A stretch of 9,483 bases of DNA from a virus (lineage: Duplodnaviria; Heunggongvirae; Uroviricota; Caudoviricetes): the IMG/VR virus record IMGVR_UViG_2778261058_000006, positions 1 to 9,483 of that record; one strand, 5' to 3'. The translations under genes were made by a program, and so were the position numbers. Positions within the stretch are counted from its first letter, which is position 1. Each line of letters opens with the position of its first letter. The notes under the pieces were generated by a model. That model saw only the letters and a list, made by a program, of their open reading frames with translations, was not told the DNA's origin and did not search any database. Shown here piece after piece: positions 414 to 7,679 of the stretch.

Positions 414-674
414 TCACTCATCTTCAAAAGCAGAAAAACCAGCCTTAAGCCCAGCTTCTTTCAGAGACTGCAATGATGTGACAAATTCATTTTCACGCAA
501 AATAAAACCATCCGTCACCAGTCCATCCACAAAGTAAATTAACGCCGCCCCACTCTTCCTTTGTTGAGACTGTAAACATTTAATACGGCAGTGGCTGACA
601 ATAGCGCCATTCTCAACGCGCACAGTATAGAGGCCATCTTCACTAAAAATTTCAACCAATTCTTCGATTTTCAT
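414..674 (-). CDS. Hypothetical small prophage protein (86 aa)
   Basis: ATG at 674..672 with a GGAAGGA SD about 9 nt upstream (the ORF-track start at 677 is TTG). Clean ORF downstream of the hok terminator. It sits where rem lies in K-12 Qin, but identity was not verified. Confidence 0.5.
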   Translation of the reverse strand: MKIEELVEIFSEDGLYTVRVENGAIVSHCRIKCLQSQQRKSGAALIYFVDGLVTDGFILRENEFVTSLQSLKEAGLKAGFSAFEDE

Positions 675-863
675 CAACAGAATCCTTCCAGATAAATAGC
701 ACTCCCCTGCTCGGGGTCCATCCCTCTTCTCCCTGCGCGCTACTTAAGAGCCTCGATTCTAGCCGTGAAGACATACCGATCAACAGCAATAAGCCACCTG
801 AATAACAGAATCAGCCAGCCACATCAGTACAACCAGATGCATCATGCTCACCGAAAATAAACA

Positions 864-887
864 ACAAAAAACCCGCCGAAGCGGGTT
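864..887 (-). terminator. Rho-independent terminator downstream of the hok-like gene
   Basis: On the minus strand: 7-bp GC-rich stem AACCCGC/GCGGGTT with TTCG loop, followed by a U-run (complement of the A6 run at 866-871). Confidence 0.6.
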
Positions 888-955
888 AAGTGCGGGTGCG
901 TTGAGGATGCCTGACACATCAGAGGTGGCGAGGGATTTCTCCCCCGCCGGGTCTC

Positions 956-1111
956 TTACTCCTCAGGTTCGTAAGCTGTGAAGACAGCGACCTCCGTCTG
1001 GCCGGTTCGGATTCGTACCTCGCAGAGGTCTTTCCTCGTTACCAGTGCCGTCACTATGACGGTTAAACAGATGACGATCAGGGCGATTAACATCGCCTTT
1101 TGCTGCTTCAT
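956..1111 (-). CDS. hokD: Hok/Gef-family type I toxin (51 aa, single-TM membrane peptide)
   Basis: Translation MKQQKAMLIALIVICLTVIVTALVTRKDLCEVRIRTGQTEVAVFTAYEPEE matches my recollection of E. coli HokD/RelF and is close to HokC/Gef. AAGGAG SD 9 nt upstream of ATG 1111..1109. In-frame upstream GTG at 1138 gives a Mok-like 9-aa extension (MPKGKEKQA). Confidence 0.85.
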   Translation of the reverse strand: MKQQKAMLIALIVICLTVIVTALVTRKDLCEVRIRTGQTEVAVFTAYEPEE

Positions 1112-1380
1112 AGCCTGCTTCTCCTTGCCTTTCGGCACGTAAGAGGCTAATCTTCAGTTGTCGAGACATAAGACTGGCCTCACTTCGATTTATAGTCGGG
1201 TGGGGCTTTTCTCTATCTGCCTTTGGTGGCATGCCCGAGACAGATAGCCTCAAGCACCCGCAGCAATTCTACTTAACTCTCCTTTTCCCGCAAACCGTTT
1301 TTATCCCCAACGGCAATTCGAATACACTACCAGCGCCACCGCCAGTGCAATTCCTACCGTTGTGAATGCTTCAGGCCAGG

Positions 1381-1947
1381 TCATCGTAAAATATCCTCCG
1401 CGCTTATCAGTCCGTTTCGCTTCAGGTAGACCATCGCCTTCTCCGGTAATTTGCAGTCCGGCTTCGCTTTCCTCAATTGGCTAACCAGTTGTTTAATCAG
1501 CATTGTTAATTCCCGTACCTGAACGTCCCTTTTGGTATCCTCATTGGTGAGGATACCATCGTCTTTCCCCTGAAGCATGGCGGCGCAGCAGGCGTTCCAT
1601 GAAATTTCCTGAAGGGAACGACGAATCTGTGTGCTGCATATACTCCTCCCTGACTCCTGGCTGTTAAACCATGTTTCAAATTCCGGCACTACCGTCGCTG
1701 GCGGAGCAGCGTATAGCGGCACGTATATTTCCGGTTCCTTGTCTGCTCCTGGTTGCCCTTCCAGTGAGAATGTCTTTCCGGTAAATCGATTCATATAAAG
1801 CATTGGCTCTGCTTCCAGTGATGCCAGTGCGATACGAAACACATTGGCAAGCAGGCTGTCTGAAGATTGGTTATCGTGCGCCGGGTCGCTCAGGAAACCA
1901 GTGATGAATGATTTAATCTCCGCGTTTTCTCTGGTAATAGTGGTCAT
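1381..1947 (-). CDS. Hypothetical prophage protein (188 aa)
   Basis: ATG 1947..1945 preceded by AGGAGA SD, which lies in the last codons of the upstream gene (stop 1951..1949). Long ORF on the operon strand. Confidence 0.6.
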   Translation of the reverse strand: MTTITRENAEIKSFITGFLSDPAHDNQSSDSLLANVFRIALASLEAEPMLYMNRFTGKTFSLEGQPGADKEPEIYVPLYAAPPATVVPEFETWFNSQESGRSICSTQIRRSLQEISWNACCAAMLQGKDDGILTNEDTKRDVQVRELTMLIKQLVSQLRKAKPDCKLPEKAMVYLKRNGLISAEDILR

Positions 1948-7271: not shown

Positions 7272-7679
7272 ATGAAAAACGAAACCTTCGGTGCTCGCCT
7301 CTTACATAGGCGTAAAAAATTAAAACTGTCTCAGGCCGCATTAGGTAAGCTGGTCAAAGTGGCTCACGTAACAATTTCTCAATGGGAAAGAGATGAAACA
7401 CAGCCGGCGGGGAAAAGATTATTCGCACTGAGCCAAGCGCTTCAGTGCTCACCGACTTGGCTTCTTTTTGGGGATGAAGATAAACAACCAGGCGAACCGA
7501 TCCCGGATAATCAGCCAGCCATTCTGACAGAAGATCAAAAAGAGTTACTTCAACTGTTCGACGCACTGCCTGAGTCAGAGCAAAAAGCCCTGTTGTCAGA
7601 GATGCGTGCTCGAGTTGAAAATTTCAACAAACTTTTTGAAGAACTACTCAAAGCTCGCAAAAGAAGCGCAAACAAATAA
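7272..7679 (+). CDS. dicA: DicA-like HTH (Xre/cI-type) prophage repressor, 135 aa
   Basis: N-terminal HTH (LSQAALGKLVKVAHVTISQWER) and a C-terminus resembling recalled DicA. Divergent from the Cro analogue. No SD upstream, so possibly a leaderless-type start. Confidence 0.85.
   Translation: MKNETFGARLLHRRKKLKLSQAALGKLVKVAHVTISQWERDETQPAGKRLFALSQALQCSPTWLLFGDEDKQPGEPIPDNQPAILTEDQKELLQLFDALPESEQKALLSEMRARVENFNKLFEELLKARKRSANK

Follow-up and report, generated by a model that had tools for sequence, protein, structure and literature searches.

The DNA analysed here, hereafter the window, is a stretch of 9,483 nucleotides from the early-right region of a lambdoid prophage. On its plus strand lies a repressor-like gene (7272-7679), and the minus strand carries, in this order, a Cro-like gene, a CII-like gene, O-like and P-like replication genes, nin-region ORFs, a hok gene and small ORFs of the Rem-region type, with hok co-oriented with the replication and nin genes of the early-right operon. 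Among DNA matches of the window, the best came from prophages of E. coli and from phages of the Stx-converting or 'PPompW' kind, with 60-74% coverage and 90-94% identity, as is typical of phage mosaicism. As the earlier note on this DNA had described, hok is preceded by a gene for a 188-aa protein; this ORF (1381..1947, minus strand) was confirmed and has a full-length match to phrog_660. The elements assigned to the hok locus are listed below in the order of their coordinates.

864 to 887, minus strand: rho-independent terminator of the hok mRNA (AACCCGCUUCGGCGGGUU followed by UUUUUU), from the terminator scan and the fold
894 to 906, minus strand: fbi (CCUCAACGCACCC), complementary to tac, from the full-length minimum free energy (MFE) fold and the pairing in 45 loci
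927 to 948, minus strand: 3'-UTR stem-loop of 9 bp, GGCGGGGGA-GAAA-UCCCUCGCC, present in both folds and conserved in the alignment
956 to 1111, minus strand: hok (hokD-type) toxin gene, 51 aa, from Pfam HOK_GEF, PHROG 251 and identity to HokD
963 to 1169, minus strand: mok leader ORF, 68 codons, in the +1 frame relative to hok, its ATG (1169) preceding that of hok by 58 nt
1121 to 1126, minus strand: hok Shine-Dalgarno (SD) sequence AAGGAG, from the alignment; the homology with the K-12 relBE-hokD locus starts here
1143 to 1147, minus strand: dcb, GCCUC, predicted partner of the mok SD once the mRNA is truncated and translatable
1178 to 1181, minus strand: mok SD, GAGG, predicted to be paired with ucb as long as the mRNA is full-length and with dcb after truncation
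1200 to 1209, minus strand: ucb or anti-SD box (AAAGCCCCAC), partner of the mok SD in the full-length fold and of tac in the fold after truncation
1248 to 1259, minus strand: probable 5' end of the hok mRNA with tac (GGGUGCUUGAGG), from the RF01794 model start at 1259, the alignment and the folds
1266 to 1294, minus strand: putative hok promoter read from the sequence, with a -10 TAGAAT (1271..1266) and a weak -35, TTGCGG (N16) or TTTGCG (N17), at about 1294..1288
1125 to 1153, plus strand: Sok promoter by positional homology, with -35 TTGCCT (1125-1130), a 17-nt spacer and -10 TAATCT (1148-1153)
1160 to 1213, plus strand: predicted Sok RNA of about 50-55 nt, from its fold and its place inside the RF01794 match, with inferred ends

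The toxin gene and the mok frame

The ORF at 1111..956 on the minus strand encodes MKQQKAMLIALIVICLTVIVTALVTRKDLCEVRIRTGQTEVAVFTAYEPEE. This 51-aa product matched the full 42-position profile of Pfam HOK_GEF (PF01848) with 82.9 bits (cut-off 22) and PHROG 251, 'MokW-like host killing', with an E value of 2.8e-33. The likeness to HokD/RelF that had been pointed out earlier turned out to be complete, as the window toxin and K-12 HokD (RelF), as annotated in a K-12-type genome, are identical at 51/51 positions. In the NCBIfam search, the toxin reached sub-threshold scores with the models for the Hok subfamily (48.5 bits, cut-off 73) and HokA (40.2 bits, cut-off 89) and did not match the HokD-specific model, a result that is uninformative for a protein identical to HokD. 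Over-expression of the HokD coding sequence has been reported to be toxic (bioRxiv 10.1101/2025.08.07.668861), and the protein encoded in the window is the same as that HokD. Both hok and mok are free of any IS element, frameshift or interrupting stop codon.

In plasmid R1, the start of mok is at +116, that of hok is at +174, and the mok SD is GAGG (PMC9841398). In the window, a GAGG lies 11 nt upstream of the ATG at 1169, and the ORF that begins there shares with R1 mok both the 58-nt spacing to hok and the residues Q15-G16-E17 (R1 data from PMC9841398). The GAGG is near-invariant among 45 aligned loci, all of which have a GAGG-preceded mok ATG 56, 57 or 58 nt upstream of hok, and the ORF from this ATG reads into the hok start in 45/45 loci, whichever of the three frames it uses. 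The sequence of the Mok peptide is not the conserved feature of these 45 loci. DUF5431, the Pfam model of the Mok family, matched the window mok over its full length but weakly (E = 5e-4, 20.5 bits, cut-off 27), which fits the report that it is the translation of mok that matters and not the Mok peptide (PMC9841398).

A GTG at 1138, in frame with hok, had been taken by the earlier note as the start of a short Mok-like extension. An ORF from this GTG does exist, but the homologous mok is the one that begins with ATG 1169 in the +1 frame. We rejected GTG 1138 as the mok start, since the mok ATG of the family aligns to 1169 and the in-frame reading is shut by a TGA at 1156..1154. This TGA lies 5 codons upstream of the GTG, not 2 codons as had been stated. 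The extension is a remnant of a hokC/MokC-type frame that is interrupted by the TGA in the window locus; it gave the impression of a MokC-like tail because hokC-type loci have a 57-nt spacing and MokC is an N-terminally extended HokC.

Leader, with predicted antisense RNA and predicted mRNA switch

The Rfam model of the hok/sok leader (RF01794, gathering score 59) matched 1259..1106 on the minus strand with 120.3 bits (E = 1.1e-27) over model positions 1-157 of 157. As controls, the R1-type plasmid locus scored 87 bits and E. coli hokC 118 bits, and the search of the K-12 relBE-hokD locus with the model gave no match. RF01794 hits the sense strand of the hok mRNA in all loci, and because Sok is encoded antisense to that stretch, the match marks the Sok DNA too. 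The tac element of the window aligns with GGCGCUUGAGG of R1, and the 5' end of the mRNA was put at about 1259 by alignment with the R1-type locus and 44 other loci. By homology, the hok mRNA would have a leader of 148 nt starting at about 1259. The leader of roughly 270 nt proposed earlier corresponds instead to the intergenic distance, the rest of which holds the hok promoter and a 27-aa ORF. This small ORF (1384..1301), situated between the 188-aa gene and the hok leader, had no match in Pfam and PHROG searches.

The putative hok -10, TAGAAT, ends 6 nt upstream of the homologous +1, and the -35 is a poor match to the sigma-70 consensus. A consensus sigma-70 scan (at least 4 of 6 positions per hexamer) did not pick up this promoter, nor did the generic sigma-70 scan detect the Sok promoter, whose TAATCT matches 3 of 6 positions at the -10; both promoter assignments rest on homology and on the hokW study (PMC8621323), not on consensus strength. 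The plus-strand TTGCCT-N17-TAATCT had already been pointed out as a candidate antisense promoter, with exact coordinates, and it proved to be positionally homologous to the Sok promoter TTGCGC-N17-TATCCT of the R1-type locus. Its two hexamers are the modal ones of the family (TTGCCT in 26/45 loci, TAATCT in 18/45). In the hokW study, a 'pro-less' sokW construct lost its antitoxin activity and unleashed HokW toxicity (PMC8621323), and by our own reading of primers YO-421 and YO-597 in that paper, the mutation hits the TAACCT of sokW at the homologous -10.

The predicted Sok RNA folds with -20.4 kcal/mol (z = -2.3) into a single-stranded 5' tail, which covers the start codon of mok, and a terminator hairpin (1176-1207) followed by UUUUCU. 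Being the complement of the ucb-SD hairpin, the Sok hairpin is kept with covariation.

Folding of the hok mRNA, which the earlier note had proposed as a check, gave two alternative structures for the full-length and the truncated forms. The MFE fold of the 394-nt full-length transcript (1259..866) has -161 kcal/mol against a shuffle mean of -124 (z = -5.8), and 0/100 shuffles folded as well. In this closed form, tac (nt 1-12) pairs with fbi (nt 354-366) through 12 bp with one bulge, and ucb (GCCCCAC) pairs with the mok SD region. When the mRNA was shortened at window position 908, which takes off the last 42 nt with fbi and the terminator, the MFE fold changed to pairing of tac with ucb and of the SD (GAGGC) with dcb. 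This predicted refolding from closed to open reproduces the switch described for the R1 hok mRNA (PMC9841398). The 3'-UTR stem-loop that had been noticed after the toxin gene was found at 948..927, where the truncated R1 mRNA ends; by analogy with R1 (PMC9841398), it would be the expected stop of 3' exonucleolytic processing and the 3' end of the truncated mRNA. The rho-independent terminator, which had been placed within 956-1380, is real (stem 887..870, then a U-run), but the terminator and fbi lie outside that interval, at 864-906.

Conservation of these structures was assessed across the family. A one-genome-per-species scan yielded 53 loci, and the alignment used (A3) has 45 sequences with 63% mean column identity; it was assembled from 43 non-identical tac-to-fbi stretches of the scan, plus the best E. 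coli match (L002), the window and the R1-type locus, and covers Escherichia, Shigella, Kluyvera, Citrobacter, Pseudocitrobacter, Photorhabdus, Erwinia, Kalamiella and the R1-type plasmid. Across the 45 loci, the UTR helices of the closed form have standard pairs in 82% of cells, compared with 37-48% when the partners are slid by 1-3 columns, a control that favours the tested structures, as these were taken from the MFE fold of the window itself. Changes on both sides occurred in 15 pairs, and the observed covariation score was reached by 0/500 shuffles. In tac/fbi, the inner helix is 95.9% paired and the outer helix 80%, and in 13 loci both partners have changed, giving C-G in place of U-A. 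Pairing in the ucb-SD hairpin reaches 94% and includes 4 compensatory pairs. The open-form helices are also kept, tac/ucb being 98.7% paired and SD/dcb about 98%, with five pairs of the latter (columns 127-132 with 164-168) retained in 43-44 of 45 loci; these helices are uninformative for covariation because they are nearly invariant.

The mok, tac, fbi and sok elements, whose alignment to known loci had been suggested in advance, could all be aligned. The full-length RF01794 match, the element-by-element alignment, the folds and the covariation bear out the earlier proposal of a self-contained module that lacks relBE and has its own leader, candidate antisense promoter and terminator. We consider it highly probable that the nin region of this lambdoid prophage holds a type I hok/mok/sok module of the hokD/hokW lineage whose structure is intact. 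Loci of this type are already known, and the window locus does not depart from the known family.

Proposed mode of action and its alternatives

For transcript ends, 3' processing, Sok expression, killing and biological role, we infer the behaviour of the window locus from that of R1 and hokW-sokW. A weak constitutive promoter (-10 TAGAAT, 1271..1266) would produce a hok mRNA of about 395 nt, from about 1259 to about 865. In this full-length mRNA, tac (1259..1248) and fbi (906..894) would be paired and ucb (around 1209..1200) would hide the mok SD (1181..1178), by which both ribosomes and Sok would be excluded. Slow 3' trimming to the stem-loop at 948..927 would strip off fbi, upon which tac would pair with ucb and the mok SD with dcb (1147..1143), and the mok start would be exposed. 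Translation of mok from ATG 1169 in the +1 frame would then cross the SD and start of hok and allow translation of the 51-aa membrane toxin. The short, unstable Sok (about 1160-1213, plus strand) may bind the truncated mRNA in the region where mok translation is initiated and so block mok and hence hok. In R1, the Sok duplex is then cleaved by RNase III. The toxin would be made only once the supply of Sok stops. The likeliest role, by analogy with hokW-sokW of prophage Sp5, would be to aid lysis and phage release on induction and/or to help retain the prophage.

Structural intactness is no guarantee of the R1 phenotype, as observed in tested chromosomal hok loci: hokA, hokB and hokC of the chromosome show neither post-segregational killing nor activation in response to rifampicin (summarised in bioRxiv 10.1101/2025.08.07.668861). 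The window locus could likewise be a decayed or silent relic, complete in appearance but inert, which would give no post-segregational killing, nor any toxin under natural conditions, and would be kept only by hitch-hiking in the prophage, and the promoter hexamers, weak by consensus, would suit such a relic. However, the regulatory elements are all intact and carry compensatory changes, which argues for ongoing selection on the RNA structures and not for decay. The uninterrupted hok and mok frames point the same way, as does hokW-sokW, a close prophage relative that is experimentally active and affects phage release (PMC8621323). A silent relic is in our view very unlikely.

The placement of hok raises another possibility, namely that the toxin is made mainly from the early-right (pR) transcript of the phage without a Sok switch, as an accessory lysis or holin-like gene whose hok/sok elements are vestigial. 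The orientation of hok, shared with the replication and nin genes, is compatible with this, and the terminator scan found no terminator-like site between hok and the upstream minus-strand genes. In Sp5, moreover, RecA-dependent induction of the prophage leads to the production of HokW, which doubles the release of phage (PMC8621323). Yet the same system makes use of its antisense control, as the sokW promoter is needed to suppress toxicity and the sokW RNA is gone before HokW appears (PMC8621323), and the conservation of the RNA elements with covariation also argues against vestigial elements. Production of the toxin mainly from pR is unlikely, and pR transcription is better seen as an additional trigger for the canonical module than as its replacement.

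Within the reading of the locus as an intact type I module, such a trigger might work as follows. Anti-terminated transcription from pR would meet the Sok promoter head-on, silence Sok by transcriptional interference and yield 5'-extended hok transcripts. The placement of the ancestral hokD allele that the window preserves, downstream of the replication and nin genes, would then link toxin release to prophage induction, a suggestion that we put forward as possible but rather doubtful. If it is true, pR interference could explain why, in Sp5, sokW RNA is lost in a RecA-dependent manner and HokW appears.

Relation to K-12 relBE-hokD and to other known loci

The hokD gene of K-12 also lies in the nin region of a lambdoid prophage (Qin), and it shares with the window the toxin (51/51), the CDS, the 3' stem-loop, fbi and the terminator. 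Over the CDS and 3' UTR (window 866-1125), the K-12 DNA is 99.6% identical (258/259 nt). In contrast, K-12 hokD lies downstream of relBE, and relE and relB have taken the place of tac, ucb, the start of mok, the -10 of the Sok promoter and the Sok RNA, all of which are missing there. The blastn HSPs of K-12-type loci begin at query position 176, equal to window 1125, at the hok SD; further upstream, K-12 carries the 3' end of relE. The absence of relBE from the window, noted earlier from the sequence, was upheld by tblastn with K-12 RelB and RelE against the 9.5-kb window, which returned nothing better than an E value of 2.9. With a complete hok leader upstream of the toxin gene and no similarity to RelB or RelE, the window does not have the K-12-type relBEF operon.

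The near identity with K-12 from the hok SD to the terminator would also be expected if the window had been a K-12-like relBEF locus that recently lost relBE, with unrelated filler upstream of hok in place of a leader, an alternative that the earlier note had left open. The alignments refute it: the 148 nt upstream of hok are homologous throughout to the hok leaders of the R1-type locus and of many genera, K-12 has the relE 3' end in their place without tac, ucb, the mok start or the Sok -10, and no remnant of RelB or RelE is found in the window. The opposite polarity of the rearrangement holds because the window leader is homologous throughout and the K-12 upstream sequence is the 3' end of relE, and the K-12 form is stated to be the derived one in the literature (PMC7232551 and PMC12214031, citing Pedersen & Gerdes 1999). 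A recent deletion of relBE can be set aside with near certainty. Judged from the alignments, the window represents the ancestral, un-rearranged hokD arrangement, and the K-12 relBE-hokD locus is its truncated derivative.

Contrary to what had been implied, the stand-alone locus is not unusual but is the common intact form to which K-12 is the exception. Of 5,426 complete E. coli genomes, 1,689 carry at least 80% of the 551-nt locus, as do 433 plasmid records and 74 phage records. The phage records annotate it as hok/mok, gef 'phage maintenance protein', MokW or RelF, and the closest genomes annotate the Hok CDS only. For this textbook type I module, a 'stand-alone hokD' is the complete and normal form, and the result matters little beyond correct annotation, for which exact coordinates are now given for mok, Sok and the RNA switch elements that annotation pipelines usually omit.

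The hok/sok (parB) locus of R1 shares with the window tac, ucb, the GAGG of the mok SD, dcb, the hok SD, the 3' stem-loop and fbi, and its mok likewise begins with an ATG 58 nt before hok, in the +1 frame, while the 17-nt spacing of its Sok promoter is that of the promoter predicted in the window (PMC9841398). The mok spacing of R1 was taken from the coordinates in PMC9841398 and not from our R1-type reference L003 (pMTY1886), in which mok is in frame with hok at 57 nt, one base off the 58 nt of R1 proper. R1 Hok is only distantly similar to the window toxin, since HokW, a close relative of the latter, is 44% identical to R1 Hok (PMC8621323). The window leader is also about 25 nt shorter than that of R1, owing to its smaller tac hairpin loop. 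The window locus belongs to a prophage in a chromosome and the R1 locus to a plasmid, and the plasmid system is the only one for which post-segregational killing has been demonstrated.

The chromosomal hokC/mokC (gef) of E. coli belongs to the same family, with a leader of 118 bits on RF01794, as given above, and a toxin 82% identical to that of the window. There, mok shares the reading frame of hok (57 nt) and MokC consists of MLNTCRVPLTDRKVKEKRA plus HokC, whereas in the window that frame is shut by the TGA at 1156..1154.

The closest characterised relative is hokW-sokW (mokW) of the Stx2 prophage Sp5 (VT2-Sakai) of E. coli O157:H7, also a lambdoid prophage and a working type I toxin-antitoxin system (PMC8621323). 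Its DNA is 86.8% identical over 95% of the locus, and the published hokW-sokW primers match the tac region, the hok start and the Sok promoter region of the window almost exactly. HokW ends in …VFVDYESEK and the window toxin in …VFTAYEPEE, and the sokW -10 is TAACCT compared with TAATCT in the window. Two further differences were seen by comparison with four E. coli loci of this lineage (L008, L004, L010 and L014): these have an extra hairpin of about 28 nt between ucb and the mok SD, and their mok shares the frame of hok (57 nt), whereas the window is without this hairpin and has mok in the +1 frame (58 nt). As an intact natural hokD allele, the window locus could be used to compare an action like that of hokW-sokW, in lysis and phage release, with one like that of R1, in post-segregational killing.

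Frame of mok and the Tyr47 codon across the hok family

In an alignment of 45 hok loci that includes the window and an R1-type plasmid locus, the start of the leader ORF mok precedes the hok ATG by 56, 57 or 58 nt (window 1112-1169, minus strand). With respect to hok, mok therefore occurs in each of the three reading frames. Three forms of mok were recognized, namely an N-terminally extended Hok, a +1 overlapping ORF and a 19-codon ORF whose stop forms an ATGA with the hok start, and in all 45 loci mok reads into the hok initiation site, whichever its frame. The Hok of the R1-type locus L003 (IncFII plasmid pMTY1886) is identical to R1 Hok. Its mok is in frame with hok at a spacing of 57 nt (L003 540-603), whereas the spacing given for R1 is one base longer (58 nt; PMC9841398). 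Among RefSeq CDSs at L003, only a truncated 33-aa 'Hok' is called.

The heptamer TTACGAA (window 968-974, minus strand) is invariant in the alignment (45/45 loci) and encloses one codon of the toxin gene:

973..971, minus strand: TAC, Hok Tyr47 codon, inside TTACGAA

A-to-I editing by TadA is reported to occur in a TACG context and to convert this Tyr to Cys in hokB, hokC, hokD and hokE mRNAs (PMC12214031); TTACGAA at the Tyr47 codon of the window contains this reported context.

Strand matched by Rfam RF01794

In all tested loci (window 1259-1106, L002, L003, L008 and L016), RF01794 matched the sense strand of hok mRNA, from tac through the hok start codon, and no RF01794 match was found on the Sok-encoding strand of any of them. 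The name of the family, 'sok antitoxin', is at odds with the strand that its model matches.

Sequences flanking hok

One small ORF lies between the 188-aa phage gene and hok:

1301-1384, minus strand: 27-aa hydrophobic ORF, MTWPEAFTTVGIALAVALVVYSNCRWG

Its ATG and the stop codon of the 188-aa gene share an ATGA. Counterparts with 73-96% amino-acid identity occur 5' of hok in L002, L005/L010 and L023. The ORF matched nothing in Pfam and PHROG searches and carries no annotation in the closest genome; it may encode a short membrane peptide of the phage. On the other side, downstream of the hok terminator, TTGATC-N16-TAGAAT (756-783, minus strand) was the sole sigma-70-like site to pass a generic scan of window 700-1500. 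It lies upstream of an 87-aa phrog_340 ORF (677..414) and may serve as that ORF's own promoter.

Leader type and possible mosaicism

The stretch from ucb to the mok SD (window 1186-1199, minus strand) is of the short leader type and is nearly identical to that of two Photorhabdus loci (L039 and L040). In contrast, other E. coli loci of the hokD/hokW type (L008, L004, L010 and L014) carry an extra hairpin of ~28 nt there, which the window lacks. Unlike this leader, with its similarity to Photorhabdus, the 3' half is 99.6% identical to K-12 hokD. The combination of a Photorhabdus-like short leader and a K-12-like 3' half is suggestive of mosaic recombination among hok loci.
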